64,000 nt of DNA from Escherichia coli (GCF_030384885.1 NZ_CP128613.1), one strand, 5' to 3'; counted from the first letter of the stretch, positions 57,731-61,350 are shown. Notes: generated by a model from the letters alone, not told the origin. Program-made: numbers and translations.

Positions 57731-59272
57731 ATGCGTAAGATAACAACCGCCGAGACACTGGCGGCGCAAATTCAGGACGGTGCAACCATTGCCATTAGCG
57801 GTAATGGCGGCGGCATGGTGGAAGCGGACCATATTCTGGCTGCTATTGAAGCGCGTTTCCTGCAAACCGGACACCCGCGCGATCTGACATTAATCCACTC
57901 GCTGGGCATTGGCGATCGCGACTGCAAAGGCACTAACCGCTTCGCTCATGCAGATATGCTCAAACGCATCATTGCCGGACATTTTACCTGGTCGCCCAAG
58001 ATGCAGGATCTGGTGAAAAACAATGCTATTGAAGCCTACTGCTTCCCTGGTGGCGTAATTCAGGCACTGCTGCGGGAGATCGGTGCCGGACGTCCAGGGC
58101 TTTTTACCCACGTTGGACTGGGATCGTTTGTTGATCCGCGCAACGGCGGCGGTAAGTCGAACGCCAGCACCACTGAGGATCTGGTAGAACTGATTGAAAT
58201 CGACGGTGAAACCAAACTTCGTTATCGCCCTTTCAAAGTGGATTACGCGATTTTGCGTGGCACTTATGCCGATCCTCGAGGCAACGTCAGCCTTGAAGAA
58301 GAGGCGATTGATATGGATAGCTATTCCATGGCGCTGGCAGCACACAACAGCGGTGGCAAAGTGTTCGTACAGGTGCGCGATGTGCTGGAAGCTGGTGCCA
58401 TTGAACCACGCCGGGTCAAATTACCGGGCATTCTGGTTGATGGCATCGTTGAACACCGCGAACAACCGCAAACATATCTTGGCGGTTACGACCTGACCAT
58501 CAGCGGTCAGCACCGCCGTTTAAGTTCTAACGACGCTATTGAACTGGTTACTCATCCGGTGCGCCGCCTGATTGCCCGTCGGGCAGCACGCGAACTGGTG
58601 GCTGGCGCTTCAACCAACTTTGGCTTTGGCATTCCCGGCGGCATTCCTGGGGTTGCACTGCGCGAAGGCGTGCCTTATCAAAGTTTATGGCTGAGCGTCG
58701 AGCAAGGCGTGCATAACGGTATGATGCTGGATGATGCTCTGTTCGGCTGCGCCCGTAACGCCGATGCCATTATTCCATCACTCGATCAATTCGAATTCTA
58801 CAGTGGCGGAGGGATCGATATCACCTTCCTCGGCATGGGAGAGATGGATCAGCATGGTAACGTCAACGTCTCCCATCTCAATGGCAATCTCATTGGCCCC
58901 GGCGGATTTCTCGAAATTGCGCAAAACGCCCGTAAAGTGGTGTTCTGTGGCACGTTCGACGCCAAAGGTAGCAAGATTGATGTAACACCAGATGGCTTGC
59001 ATATCGCCCAGTCAGGTCAAATCCCTAAACTGGTTACCCAAGTGGAAAAAATCACTTTTAGCGCCGCCTACGCACAGCAAAGCGGTCAGGAAGTGTTGTA
59101 TATCACTGAACGTGCAGTATTCCAATTAACAGCAGAAGGCGTTGAATTAATTGAAATCGCACCAGGTGTGGAGATTGAGCGCGACATTCTGCCATATATG
59201 GCTTTCCGTCCAATTATCAATCAGCCACGCCTGATGGAAAGTAGCCTGTTTACGCCGATGGAGGATGCATGA
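57731..59272 (+). CDS. Family I CoA-transferase (YdiF-like fused alpha/beta acyl-CoA:acetate CoA-transferase)
   Basis: 513-aa ORF collinear with E. coli YdiF (…GGG…DHIL…, FVDPRNGGGK, glutamate-containing active-site region). Confidence 0.82.
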   Translation: MRKITTAETLAAQIQDGATIAISGNGGGMVEADHILAAIEARFLQTGHPRDLTLIHSLGIGDRDCKGTNRFAHADMLKRIIAGHFTWSPKMQDLVKNNAIEAYCFPGGVIQALLREIGAGRPGLFTHVGLGSFVDPRNGGGKSNASTTEDLVELIEIDGETKLRYRPFKVDYAILRGTYADPRGNVSLEEEAIDMDSYSMALAAHNSGGKVFVQVRDVLEAGAIEPRRVKLPGILVDGIVEHREQPQTYLGGYDLTISGQHRRLSSNDAIELVTHPVRRLIARRAARELVAGASTNFGFGIPGGIPGVALREGVPYQSLWLSVEQGVHNGMMLDDALFGCARNADAIIPSLDQFEFYSGGGIDITFLGMGEMDQHGNVNVSHLNGNLIGPGGFLEIAQNARKVVFCGTFDAKGSKIDVTPDGLHIAQSGQIPKLVTQVEKITFSAAYAQQSGQEVLYITERAVFQLTAEGVELIEIAPGVEIERDILPYMAFRPIINQPRLMESSLFTPMEDA

Positions 59273-61350
59273 GTCAGCTTGATGACACCCTCCTTGATGC
59301 GCTGACGCATGTCACTTTCCCGAAGGGTTTTGCACAGGCAGAACCCGCATGGGTTGTCACGGTAGACGGTGTTGATTACCCACTCTGGCAAACAGATGCC
59401 CTGGTAGTCGGCAGTGGTGCAGCCGGGCTGCGTGCAGCTGTGGAACTTAAACGCCGCCAGCAAAATGTGTTGATCGCCACTGCCGGGTTATATATGGGGA
59501 CGTCGGCATGTTCTGGTTCCGATAAACAGACACTGTTTACCGCCGCTACCGCGGGCAATGGCGACAACTTCACCAAACTGGCAGAGGCACTGGCGAGCGG
59601 TGGAGCGATGGATCACGACACCGCTTATGTCGAAGCGGTAGGTTCTCTGCACACTCTTGGCGGGTTGCAATATCTTGGTCTGGAATTACCGGAAGATCGC
59701 TATGGCGCGATTCTTCGTTATCAAACCGACCATGACGAAGCCGGGCGTGCAACCTCGTGTGGGCCGCGTACCTCAAGGTTAATGGTGAAAGTGCTGTTGG
59801 AAGAAGTGCAGCGCCTCGCCATTCCAGTGTTGACCAGTGCAACAGTGATTAAACTGCTGCATCAGCGTGACGAAAACGGCGAAGACTGCGTGGCGGGGGC
59901 AATCCTCGCGACCGGTCATCGCGCCCATAACCCATGGGGGCTGGCAATTGTGACTGCGCCCAATGTGGTGCTGGCAACAGGAGGGCCTGGCGAGCTTTAT
60001 CGAGACAGTGTGTACCCACATAAATGCTTCGGCTCGCTGGGGCTGGCGCTGGAAGAAGGTCTGACGCTAACCAATCTGACCGAAAGCCAGTTTGGTATTG
60101 GCACGCCACGCAACACCTTTCCGTGGAATTTGTCCGGCACCTATGTACAGGTGATCCCATATATCTATTCCGTAGATGCTGAGGGCAACGAGTATAACTT
60201 CCTCACGGATTACTATCGAACTACCCAGGAACTGGCTTCAAACATCTTCCGTAAAGGCTATCAGTGGCCGTTTCACGCCACACGAGTGATGGATTTTGGC
60301 TCCAGCTTGTTAGATATGGCAGTAGCGCAAGAGCAGCAATCAGGGCGTCAGGTATTTATGGATTTCAATCGCAATCCTGAACCTGTGCCGGGTGACATGC
60401 CGTTCTCATTAGATCGACTGGACGACGACGTTCGCGCGTATCTGGAAAATAACGACGCTCTGGCACCATCGCCCATCGAACGACTGCAACGAATGAATCC
60501 GCTGTCTATCTCGCTGTATAAGATGCACGGTTACGATCTCACCACGCAGCCATTGCAGTTTGCCATGAATAATCAGCATATGAATGGCGGCATTGAAGTG
60601 GATATCTGGGGGCAAACCTCCCTGCCCGGCTGTTTCGCCGTGGGGGAAGTTGCTGGCACACACGGCGTTACCCGACCTGGCGGTGCGGCGCTGAATGCCG
60701 GACAGGTATTTGCCGTGCGACTGGCACGTTTTATTGGTTGCACACAAAAGCGGTCCGTTGAGGATGATATCGCGCAGCTGGTAGCCTCACCTCTGCATAC
60801 AATCAGAGAAGTTATCGCTCAGGCACTGGCAAACGAGAACGGAATGACGCTGGCAACGGTGAAAGAAAAAATCCAGGCGCGAATGTCTGATTACGCGGGA
60901 TTTATTTGCCATGCTGATAAAGTTCGTCACGCCGCCCGTGACGCCATGCTGTTAAATGAATTTGCGCAGCAACATGGTCTAACTATCAACCACGCCGGTG
61001 AAATTGCCGAGCTATTTATGTGGCGGCATATGGCATTAACATCCGCTGCGGTGTTAAGCCAGCTATCACATTATATTGATGCTGGCGGTGGTAGTCGTGG
61101 AGCACGGATGATTATTGATCCACAAGGAGAATATCTTCCACAAACTCGTCGCGGCGCAATCGAAGATTGGCGTTTTCGCTCTGAACAAGCTGAAGATAAA
61201 AATCACAGACTAACTCTCTCCTTTTCACAAGGTTTATTTATTAATGAAATTAAGTTCTTGAGAAACTTACCGCATATTAAAGGTATTTACTTTGAGAAGA
61301 ATTGGCCTGATTTTCTTAACGGAACAATTTATCAGACACGGCATGAATAA
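59269..61350 (+). CDS. FAD-dependent oxidoreductase, FrdA/SdhA-like flavoprotein
   Basis: 693-aa ORF; N-terminal dinucleotide-binding motif (VVGSGAAGLRAAVEL); start overlaps the upstream stop (ATGA). Confidence 0.78.
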   Translation: MSQLDDTLLDALTHVTFPKGFAQAEPAWVVTVDGVDYPLWQTDALVVGSGAAGLRAAVELKRRQQNVLIATAGLYMGTSACSGSDKQTLFTAATAGNGDNFTKLAEALASGGAMDHDTAYVEAVGSLHTLGGLQYLGLELPEDRYGAILRYQTDHDEAGRATSCGPRTSRLMVKVLLEEVQRLAIPVLTSATVIKLLHQRDENGEDCVAGAILATGHRAHNPWGLAIVTAPNVVLATGGPGELYRDSVYPHKCFGSLGLALEEGLTLTNLTESQFGIGTPRNTFPWNLSGTYVQVIPYIYSVDAEGNEYNFLTDYYRTTQELASNIFRKGYQWPFHATRVMDFGSSLLDMAVAQEQQSGRQVFMDFNRNPEPVPGDMPFSLDRLDDDVRAYLENNDALAPSPIERLQRMNPLSISLYKMHGYDLTTQPLQFAMNNQHMNGGIEVDIWGQTSLPGCFAVGEVAGTHGVTRPGGAALNAGQVFAVRLARFIGCTQKRSVEDDIAQLVASPLHTIREVIAQALANENGMTLATVKEKIQARMSDYAGFICHADKVRHAARDAMLLNEFAQQHGLTINHAGEIAELFMWRHMALTSAAVLSQLSHYIDAGGGSRGARMIIDPQGEYLPQTRRGAIEDWRFRSEQAEDKNHRLTLSFSQGLFINEIKFLRNLPHIKGIYFEKNWPDFLNGTIYQTRHE

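Follow-up and report, generated by a model that had tools for sequence, protein, structure and literature searches.

A stand-alone FrdA/SdhA-type flavoprotein of Escherichia coli belongs to an uncharacterised clade whose most constant gene neighbours encode sugar and sugar-acid catabolism enzymes

The described flavoenzymes closest to the one considered here are the flavoprotein subunits of complex II (FrdA and SdhA), L-aspartate oxidase (NadB), the soluble 2-enoate reductases and the ring-ketone desaturases exemplified by KstD. The catabolism of steroids and of cyclohexanone provides a precedent for the succession of a hydroxyl-to-ketone dehydrogenase and an FAD_binding_2 ring desaturase. In the cytoplasmic NADH:fumarate and NADH:acrylate reductases, an Old Yellow Enzyme (OYE) module is combined with FAD_binding_2 (bioRxiv 10.1101/2022.01.20.477176). 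Here, we analysed a flavoprotein gene located near the end of a stretch of 64,000 nucleotides from E. coli 2013C-4282 (GCF_030384885.1, NZ_CP128613.1; hereafter, the window), which an initial annotation, made from the sequence alone, had described as an FrdA/SdhA-like flavoprotein standing alone in a coenzyme A (CoA)-pathway operon. We show that the flavoprotein belongs to a large, coherent and uncharacterised clade of the NadB/SdhA/FrdA superfamily, and that its most constant partners are enzymes of sugar and sugar-acid catabolism, not CoA enzymes.

The flavoprotein open reading frame (ORF), at 59269..61350 on the + strand, starts with ATG, encodes a 693-aa protein that Pfam assigns to FAD_binding_2, and coincides with the RefSeq coding sequence WP_000080363.1, annotated as "FAD-dependent oxidoreductase". 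The gene is present in 3125 of 5426 complete E. coli genomes (about 58%), with the ORF being intact in 3116 E. coli genomes, and comparison of the 2013C-4282 and Nissle 1917 alleles yields a ratio of nonsynonymous to synonymous divergence (dN/dS) of 0.14, with dS of 0.39. Given this distribution and the low dN/dS, the gene is real and under selection, and a chance ORF is ruled out.

Pfam FAD_binding_2 (PF00890) matches residues 43-475 of the protein with 92.7 bits against a cutoff of 20.4 (model positions 1-414), and the N-terminal GxGxxG Rossmann motif and the capping domain are both present. By contrast with this domain-level match, no curated NCBIfam family scores above its cutoff: TfrA reaches 130 bits versus 718, TIGR00551 96.7 versus 452.75 and PRK07804 107.6 versus 639, whereas the complex II models sdhA_frdA_Gneg and fum_red_Fp reach 87.1 versus 567.3 and 41.8 versus 932.7, respectively. 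Profile searches thus do not place the protein in a characterised family such as L-aspartate oxidase, the NadB models staying at 97-108 bits where 453-639 would be required. Among solved structures, the best match by sequence has E = 5e-10. An AlphaFold model obtained from a 30-sequence family alignment (pLDDT 90.9, pTM 0.93) retrieves complex II flavoproteins in Foldseek, with target-normalised TM-scores of 0.73-0.79 at 15-19% identity and, based on this placement, the protein is predicted to be of the NadB/SdhA type with the helical domain and not of the KstD or UrdA type. Membership in the TcuA, KstD or flavocytochrome types was set aside, as no model or structure supports any of them better than NadB/SdhA.

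The active site was mapped using an hhalign profile alignment of the family against the E. coli FrdA taken from the same genome. The histidine that binds FAD covalently in FrdA, His44, falls opposite a gap, the family motif at this place being GTSxNxGSDKQT, and corresponds to Ser in the pairwise alignment with 7d6v; the FAD is probably bound non-covalently. Only one of the four fumarate-site residues is retained, namely FrdA R390, which corresponds to the invariant Arg469. FrdA H232 of the HPT motif is replaced by the invariant Gly276 (QFGIAS), H355 by the invariant Gln436, with His437 adjoining, and the proton donor R287 has no counterpart, the alignment there passing through the Ser345-Ser346 region. 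The same picture emerges from the comparison with the motifs of Shewanella Fcc3 (bioRxiv 10.1101/2022.01.20.477176), in which one motif I residue is left and none of motifs II and III; R544 is equivalent to Arg469, H504 to Gln436 (His437 adjacent), and R402 is absent. As the fumarate-site residues are mostly lost, the protein, judged by its alignment, would be neither a fumarate reductase, a succinate dehydrogenase nor an aspartate oxidase, and assignment as a canonical fumarate reductase or NadB was rejected on the curated-model scores and the residues together. The comparison with KstD and urocanate reductase drawn in the initial annotation holds loosely; that with urocanate reductase is limited to the fold, because the active-site residues of fumarate and 2-enoate reductases are mostly gone.

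Exhaustive HMMER searches (E<=1e-30) recovered 417 clusters at 50% identity, mostly of 640-700 aa and matched end to end, and 597 of the 600 pattern-matching stretches listed (one genome per GTDB species) were confirmed as relatives, so that at least 597 species genomes carry a member. The hosts include Enterobacterales, Rhizobiaceae, Rhodobacterales, Devosia, beta-proteobacteria, Planctomycetes, Lentisphaerae, Verrucomicrobia, Bacteroidales, Clostridia and others. Clade members are annotated as "FAD-binding protein" or mislabelled as a succinate dehydrogenase subunit, with no functional name. The 30-sequence alignment contains approximately 80 invariant positions, many of them occupied by Asn, Gln, Ser, Thr, Asp, Tyr or Trp, as would be typical of carbohydrate-binding sites.

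Genomic context was assessed in a set of 83 loci, using tblastn with the window proteins as well as de novo clustering of neighbours labelled with Pfam and NCBIfam. Within 6 kb or less of the flavoprotein gene, the most frequent neighbour is an NAD-dependent sugar-type dehydrogenase of either the short-chain dehydrogenase/reductase (SDR) or the Gfo/Idh/MocA family (42 of 73 loci), followed by GMC oxidoreductases (23/73), PF01261 barrels (15/73), PfkB kinases resembling 2-keto-3-deoxygluconate (KDG) kinase or IolC (14/73; 172-250 bits), OYE (11/73) and 2-keto-3-deoxy-6-phosphogluconate (KDPG) aldolase (8/73). In the tblastn searches, homologues of the window SDR and of the window barrel were found in 33 and 14 of the 83 flavoprotein loci, respectively, and a second PF01261 group occurs near the flavoprotein in Clostridia and Planctomycetes. 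The same searches detected a CoA-transferase in 7 and an enoyl-CoA hydratase (ECH) in 13 of the 83 loci within 10 kb, counts that are too low for the alpha-proteobacteria, in which the CoA genes lie just past the flank searched.

The loci display recurrent architectures. In alpha-proteobacteria (type A), the order is (CoA-transferase-ECH-aldehyde dehydrogenase)-glucose-type ATP-binding cassette (ABC) transporter-two GMC-Dabb-LacI-Gfo/Idh/MocA-flavoprotein-KDG/IolC-like PfkB(-KDPG aldolase), and the substrate-binding protein of the ABC transporter matches 4r2b with 553 bits and 2b3b, the Thermus "glucose-binding protein", with 126 bits. Type B, found in Phytobacter, Mangrovibacter, Pseudescherichia, Brenneria, a beta-proteobacterium, Verrucomicrobia and Lentisphaerae, consists of TetR (or cupin-helix-turn-helix (HTH))-SDR-Gfo-PF01261 barrel-anion transporter of the major facilitator superfamily (MFS)-flavoprotein, and type C, found in Clostridia, Bacteroidales and Planctomycetes, of PF01261 barrel-OYE-flavoprotein-SDR, often with KDPG aldolase and PfkB. 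Type D, which is that of E. coli, E. albertii, Klebsiella and Salmonella, corresponds to type B without Gfo, plus ECH and CoA-transferase. The nearest relatives carry neither CoA-transferase nor hydratase: the cluster reads TetR-SDR(74%)-TIM(71%)-FAD(59%)-MFS in Brenneria, TetR-SDR-flavoprotein-barrel-DctPQM in Succinatimonas, and TetR-SDR-Gfo-TIM-MFS-FAD in Phytobacter, Mangrovibacter and Pseudescherichia, with orthologous TetR genes adjoining the SDR gene in the Brenneria, Phytobacter and Succinatimonas clusters. The label of a CoA-pathway operon is therefore too simple, given these relatives and the predominance of sugar-catabolic genes among the neighbours across the family.

A thirteen-gene co-directional cluster with a flavoprotein homologue (55% identity) is present on plasmid pRCCGE531c of Rhizobium sp. 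CCGE531 (L087 1-16138). It encodes a CoA-transferase, an ECH, an aldehyde dehydrogenase, a glucose-type ABC transporter, two GMC oxidoreductases, a Gfo protein resembling levoglucosan dehydrogenase (LGDH), the flavoprotein, a KdgK-like kinase and a class-I fructose-bisphosphate aldolase. With the operon order CoA-transferase-ECH-aldehyde dehydrogenase-ABC-GMC-GMC-Gfo-FAD-kinase, it represents a complete type A, and appears to constitute by itself an uncharacterised sugar pathway.

In anaerobes, the OYE gene is located directly 5' of the flavoprotein gene (L004 8701-12004, where the two genes overlap; L069, L078 and L080), and a metagenomic protein of 1084 aa (P0155) is a natural OYE::FAD_binding_2 fusion. 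By analogy, this suggests that OYE and the clade member may form a two-flavin, NAD(P)H-linked reductase lacking the FMN_bind domain of the Klebsiella and Vibrio enzymes. As adjacency and fusion mirror the organisation of the NADH:fumarate and NADH:acrylate reductases, the flavoprotein would, at least in anaerobes, take up electrons and reduce its substrate.

In the window, the genes from the SDR gene through those of a tripartite ATP-independent periplasmic (TRAP) transporter form one operon, with spacings from SDR to DctP of 9, 9, 9, -4, 20, 22 and 52 nt, which is divergent from a gene for a TetR/AcrR-family regulator (54433..55080, - strand; TetR_N and TetR_C_29 in Pfam; RefSeq WP_001353506.1, L001 6034-6681). 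The TetR/SDR intergenic region contains a perfect palindrome, ATCAACCA-ACTAGA-TGGTTGAT (8+8; 55203..55224), which lies inside 24 consecutive invariant columns of an intergenic region that is otherwise 78% identical among 2 E. coli alleles, Klebsiella oxytoca and Salmonella enterica, and is probably the TetR operator. Scans of the sequence for sigma-70 promoters and terminators gave counts no higher than in shuffled sequence.

The first gene of the operon (55292..56083, + strand) encodes an SDR oxidoreductase of 263 aa (adh_short_C2, 144.7 bits; NCBIfam PRK12745, 420.6 bits versus a cutoff of 250), whose best solved relatives are 4da9 from Sinorhizobium meliloti and 4one from Brucella. It is followed on the same strand by a 280-aa xylose-isomerase-like TIM barrel (56093..56935; PF01261/AP_endonuc_2, Pfam 129.4 bits), which matches the uncharacterised S. 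meliloti protein SMc04130 (3ju2/3qc0) with 291 bits and for which IolI, a weak match, is the only characterised relative in the Protein Data Bank (PDB). The next gene (56945..57721, +) encodes an enoyl-CoA hydratase/isomerase family protein (ECH_1, 154 bits) with 3-hydroxypropionyl-CoA dehydratase 5zai as its best solved relative (141.7 bits); both crotonase catalytic glutamates can be read from its translation (GGGIELA and NPEVMLG). Between it and the flavoprotein gene lies the gene for a fused alpha/beta family-I CoA-transferase of 513 aa (57731..59272, +; Pfam CoA_trans) that is YdiF-like. Downstream of the flavoprotein gene are those for the TRAP small permease DctQ (61371..61847, +; Pfam DctQ, 108 bits; RefSeq start at L001 12972), the large permease DctM (61870..63171, +; Pfam DctM, 398.7 bits; TIGR00786, 459.8 bits versus a cutoff of 268) and the substrate-binding protein DctP (63224..64000, +), the last being cut by the window end, with the full gene at L001 14825-15796. 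Between dctM and dctP lies a hairpin rich in GC (63183-63200; TGGCGGC-TCCT-GCCGCCA), which precedes a T-rich stretch and may serve the differential expression of the binding protein or as a partial terminator.

No iron-sulfur subunit, membrane anchor or acyl-CoA dehydrogenase was detected among the 8 neighbouring ORFs (54.4-63.2 kb) in the Pfam and NCBIfam scans. This agrees with the initial annotation on 2 counts, namely that a cytoplasmic-looking 693-aa flavoprotein of the FrdA/SdhA type stands without complex II partners and that the operon has no acyl-CoA dehydrogenase. The annotation had also inferred stoichiometric co-expression with the CoA-transferase from the overlap of the 2 genes. 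The overlap itself is real: the ATG of the flavoprotein (59269-59271) and the TGA of the CoA-transferase (59270-59272) share ATGA, a GGAGG motif is located at 59260-59264, 4 nt 5' of the ATG (the letters around the start being GGAGGATGCATGAGT), and the 4-nt overlap recurs in the orthologous loci of K. oxytoca and S. enterica. Such an arrangement supports translational coupling as a likely feature of the junction, whereas stoichiometric expression does not follow from it. In-frame CoA-transferase::flavoprotein proteins from some E. coli (P0013, 1078 aa; P0030, 1043 aa) were considered as Rosetta-stone evidence and set aside; since the C-terminal part of the transferase is missing, they look like deletion alleles and probably result from an internal deletion across the ATGA junction rather than representing functional fusions.

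The transporter offers a view of what the operon imports. The best solved relatives of DctP are 4ovr, 4x8r, 4n15, 4n8y, 4n91 and 4mhf (205-243 bits), of which 4x8r, 4n8y, 4n91 and 4mhf are binders of D-glucuronate or D-galacturonate (PMC11668362, PMC7660916). DctP keeps the Arg/Arg/Asn ligand triad (motifs GARSFY, KVRVQ and AEN), and one Glu of LGSEKD is a Gln, so that the exact ligand may differ from that of the hexuronate binders. By sequence, DctP sits among the hexuronate-type TRAP binders, which, together with the D-galactonate-transporter type of the alternative E. coli carrier, points to a sugar-type anion as the probable imported compound.

The reading that we favour, tentatively and with somewhat less than even confidence, is that the protein, a soluble flavoenzyme, subjects a free sugar-type acid to a two-electron step, and that CoA chemistry follows downstream. 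We infer the substrate class, the order of steps, the redox direction and the residue roles as follows. An organic acid, most likely hexuronate-like, polyhydroxylated and with a six-membered ring, would be imported by the hexuronate-type TRAP transporter (or, in other strains, by an MFS carrier of the anion:cation symporter (ACS) type), the operon being under TetR repression. The SDR would oxidise a ring hydroxyl to a ketone, yielding a keto-acid, and the PF01261 barrel would catalyse an isomerisation, a (beta-)elimination or a (de)hydration. The flavoprotein, soluble and cytoplasmic, would hold FAD non-covalently and work without iron-sulfur or membrane partners; its step would most likely saturate or desaturate a C-C bond, with hydride passing between flavin N5 and the carbon in the beta position relative to the carboxylate or ketone. 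The carboxylate would be anchored by Arg469 (together with His437/Gln436), and a family-specific residue would act as proton donor or acceptor in place of FrdA Arg287. The YdiF-like CoA-transferase and the hydratase, presumably a true enoyl-CoA hydratase, would act later, on a short acid product. The initial annotation had left open whether the substrate is a CoA thioester or a free acid; the clade context favours the latter and makes the thioester the less likely option, because the nearest clusters keep TetR, SDR, barrel and flavoprotein without CoA-transferase or hydratase. Conversely, CoA-transferase and hydratase do accompany the flavoprotein in architectures that are unrelated to one another (types A and D, L012 and L075), which indicates that all three serve one pathway in those organisms; most simply, the two CoA enzymes would form a branch further downstream that works on a short acid product. 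The broader proposition, that the clade as a whole catalyses flavin-dependent C-C redox chemistry (desaturation of a ring or chain, or ene-reduction) on sugar acids or polyhydroxylated ring acids and thereby defines a new catabolic route for a hexuronate-like or hydroaromatic acid, is possible but doubtful.

Two specific versions of a sugar-acid route were set aside. A KduI/KduD-like unsaturated-uronate route, in which the flavoprotein would make or reduce 5-keto-4-deoxyuronate, is chemically unnecessary. An inositol-like lower pathway to malonate semialdehyde finds weak support, because the Rhizobium aldehyde dehydrogenase is generic (285 bits versus a cutoff of 448 for methylmalonate-semialdehyde dehydrogenase), the Rhizobium kinase resembles KdgK and the aldolase encoded nearby is a class-I fructose-bisphosphate aldolase of the ordinary kind.

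Several observations weigh against the free sugar-acid reading. No characterised homologue points to a substrate of the flavoprotein. The protein lacks the arginine that donates the proton in 2-enoate reductases, and their proton channel as well, and hence its reaction may differ from a classical ene-reduction or desaturation; at 15-22% identity, the mapping of single residues carries some uncertainty. The E. coli, Succinatimonas and alpha-proteobacterial clusters contain no evident gene for an electron donor or acceptor. Transporter types are mixed, with a carrier resembling the aromatic-acid carrier PcaK (369 bits) in Brenneria and a glucose-type ABC transporter in alpha-proteobacteria, so that substrates may differ between sub-clades. 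CoA-transferase and hydratase recur in independent architectures (a Rhizobium plasmid, a beta-proteobacterium, a Desulfobacterales genome and Rhodobacterales), and the enterobacterial flavoprotein gene is translationally coupled to that of the CoA-transferase, so that the substrate in this lineage may be a CoA ester. Finally, gene calls in the high-GC loci are crude.

The CoA-related observations are those on which the best-surviving alternative is built. It holds that the flavoprotein replaces an acyl-CoA dehydrogenase: the CoA-transferase would activate the acid, the flavoprotein would saturate or desaturate the alpha,beta bond of the CoA thioester, and the hydratase and the SDR would complete a turn resembling beta-oxidation. 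The E. coli operon indeed holds exactly the other 3 activities of such a turn and no acyl-CoA dehydrogenase, the hydratase has both catalytic glutamates, the ATGA coupling is kept in E. coli, Klebsiella and Salmonella, and CoA-transferase, ECH and flavoprotein stand together in the Rhizobium plasmid operon and in several other phyla; in L012 and L075, acyl-CoA dehydrogenase and MaoC genes are located nearby. Nevertheless, we consider this scenario unlikely, since 76 of the 83 loci lack a CoA-transferase within 10 kb in the tblastn searches (in which alpha-proteobacteria are undercounted), Brenneria, Succinatimonas and the Phytobacter group lack it while having the same invariant flavoprotein residues, the invariant Arg469 is the counterpart of a residue with which FrdA and Fcc3 bind a free carboxylate, and the PF01261 barrel would be left without a role. 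Furthermore, we know of no FAD_binding_2 enzyme acting on a CoA thioester.

The lack of a redox partner gene could be accounted for if the reaction were redox-neutral, for instance an isomerisation or dehydration proceeding through transient oxidation by FAD. Together with its sister possibility, the NadB-like oxidation of a C-O or C-N bond that would convert an alpha-hydroxy or alpha-amino sugar acid into the keto or imino compound, we regard this as rather improbable: the catalytic residues of NadB are the FrdA set, which is not kept, the OYE adjacency and fusion in anaerobes argue for a net input of electrons, and, to our knowledge, a redox-neutral reaction has no precedent in the NadB/SdhA/FrdA superfamily.

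The PcaK-like carrier of Brenneria keeps an acid of the quinate or shikimate type in play, and with a hydroaromatic substrate (quinate, shikimate or 3-dehydroshikimate type) in place of a uronate, the SDR would be a ring dehydrogenase and the barrel a dehydratase, the flavoprotein would reduce or desaturate the ring in the manner of cyclohexanone dehydrogenase or KstD, and CoA-transferase and ECH would act on the resulting cyclohexane-carboxylate. This possibility, which overlaps with the free sugar-acid reading as to the chemistry, appears improbable to us, a little more so than the redox-neutral one, as the TRAP substrate-binding protein is closest to hexuronate binders, the barrel has no sequence match to dehydroshikimate dehydratases detectable in a PDB search, and the KDG-type kinase, KDPG aldolase and glucose-type ABC transporter neighbouring the flavoprotein elsewhere in the family fit sugars, not carbocycles. 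That the gene is an ordinary paralogue of fumarate reductase, succinate dehydrogenase or L-aspartate oxidase, as the shared fold and the automatic annotation of relatives as "succinate dehydrogenase flavoprotein subunit" in some genomes might suggest, or else a decaying gene without function, can be dismissed as very improbable, given the scores far under every curated cutoff, the lack of an FrdB/SdhB partner, the loss of 3 of 4 fumarate-site residues and of the covalent-FAD histidine, the genuine frdABCD operon approximately 50 kb away in the same genome and, as for decay, the ORF intact in thousands of genomes under a dN/dS far below 1.

The gene cluster is an insertion between the core genes ytfB and rplI, and exists in E. 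coli in 2 forms that differ only past the flavoprotein stop codon. The TRAP form was found in 1461 E. coli genomes and the MFS form in 1693, the latter including Nissle 1917 and the uropathogen CFT073; K. oxytoca and S. enterica carry the MFS form at the same chromosomal site. The carrier of the MFS form is encoded by a single gene and belongs to the D-galactonate-transporter (ACS) subfamily (314 bits; L086 10166-11443 in Nissle). The transporter cassettes are swapped at a junction that coincides with the flavoprotein stop codon, with the 6 genes from TetR to the flavoprotein being constant and the GC content falling there from approximately 0.55 to 0.35-0.45. Between the 2013C-4282 and Nissle alleles, the operon genes show dS of 0.22-0.39 and dN/dS ranging from 0 (SDR) to 0.14 (flavoprotein); given these ratios, all genes of the operon are maintained by purifying selection. 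A synteny survey from 2010 had listed c5298-c5303 of CFT073 as an uncharacterised set labelled "3-ketoacid metabolism" (PMC2831201), which, judged by its rplI-adjacent position and its label, is very probably the same locus. In Nissle 1917 (L086 11586-13349) and CFT073 (L091 45028-46791), the interval from the MFS gene to rplI holds an HTH gene and a HipA-family toxin gene with a frameshift, both absent from the 2013C-4282 arrangement. Elsewhere in the window, 2 low-GC genes for hypothetical proteins, at 4659-6404 (- strand, 581 aa, GC 0.38) and 43901-44824 (- strand, 307 aa, GC 0.42), are embedded in otherwise core E. coli sequence extending from valS to ytfB.

The operon thus represents a set of 6 genes plus transporter, present in the best-studied bacterium, including a probiotic strain and a uropathogen, to which no substrate has been assigned, and its flavoprotein gives access to a clade that spans at least several hundred species and combines a complex II-like fold with a rebuilt active site and no electron-transfer partners. 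While the fold and the cofactor are already known, the clade, the active site and the pathway context are not described in the libraries and literature searched, and no functional study of the operon or its proteins was found using accessions, flanking genes, the TIM-barrel structures and names (7VPF, 3QC0, 3JU2 and SMc04130), Pfam pairs or product names as queries. If C-C flavin redox on sugar acids is confirmed, it would be a chemistry not described for carbohydrate catabolism, on a route present in more than half of complete E. coli genomes as well as in K. oxytoca, Salmonella and hundreds of species of alpha-proteobacteria, Planctomycetes, Lentisphaerae, Verrucomicrobia, Bacteroidales and Clostridia. 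Once the substrate is identified, models of how the gut and the urinary tract are colonised would gain a nutrient niche, thousands of genes labelled "FAD-binding protein" or, wrongly, "succinate dehydrogenase flavoprotein" would receive correct names, and new flavin chemistry on sugar acids might come to light. The operon is experimentally tractable, offering a binding protein, a repressor with a conserved putative operator and soluble enzymes.

Comparison with the described systems brings out both what is shared and what sets this locus apart. FrdA and SdhA (5vpn, 1kf6, 8dyd and 7d6v; 15-19% identity) differ from the flavoprotein in having iron-sulfur and anchor subunits and the covalent His44. 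NadB (2e5v, 1knr and 1chu; 21-22% identity) acts in NAD biosynthesis, whereas the window flavoprotein is encoded in a catabolic operon, and in the model the latter is longer by approximately 150 residues, owing to an N-terminal beta extension and a C-terminal beta-rich addition; the catalytic His/Arg set shared by FrdA and NadB is not conserved, an outcome taken from the FrdA alignment and not from a residue-by-residue alignment with NadB. The soluble FAD_binding_2 2-enoate reductases, that is, the NADH:fumarate reductase of Klebsiella pneumoniae, the acrylate reductase ARD of Vibrio harveyi, the urocanate reductase UrdA (6t85) and Shewanella Fcc3 (1qo8), lack the C-terminal helical domain and can be aligned with the flavoprotein over 360-380 residues. 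They carry FMN_bind or haem domains and keep the Arg402 proton donor, none of which is present in the window protein; in Pfam and RefSeq assignments, no electron-input module of the OYE-like, FMN_bind or haem kind was found in the E. coli flavoprotein or its operon. Among the partner enzymes, the CoA-transferase matches E. coli YdiF (2ahu), an acetate/3-ketoacid CoA-transferase that is likewise a fused alpha/beta family-I enzyme, over its full length (390.9 bits). The genes differ in their setting, as that of YdiF is ydiFO-ydiQRST-fadK, whereas the window gene is coupled to an orphan flavoprotein.

At the level of the pathway, the closest parallels are found in carbohydrate and ring-ketone catabolism. 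The levoglucosan pathway (LgdA/LgdB1/LgdB2/LgdC) combines a Gfo/Idh/MocA 3-dehydrogenase with a PF01261 TIM-barrel eliminase/hydratase in a sequence of oxidation, elimination, hydration and reduction (PMC10066097). The parallel is one of pathway, without homology to the flavoprotein; the compound imported by way of the E. coli operon is an anion, and the levoglucosan clusters described in that study contain no flavoprotein of this kind; the alpha-proteobacterial Gfo proteins encoded next to the flavoprotein match the LGDH model over its full length with 304-306 bits, below the cutoff of 650. The ring-ketone desaturases of the same superfamily, KstD (4c3x and 7p18), delta4-(5alpha)-KSTD (4at2) and cyclohexanone dehydrogenase (8am3), are soluble and bind FAD non-covalently; they act after an NAD-dependent oxidation of a hydroxyl to a ketone and desaturate the six-membered ring beside that ketone. 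By analogy, the pairing of an SDR or Gfo dehydrogenase with the flavoprotein may well follow the same logic.

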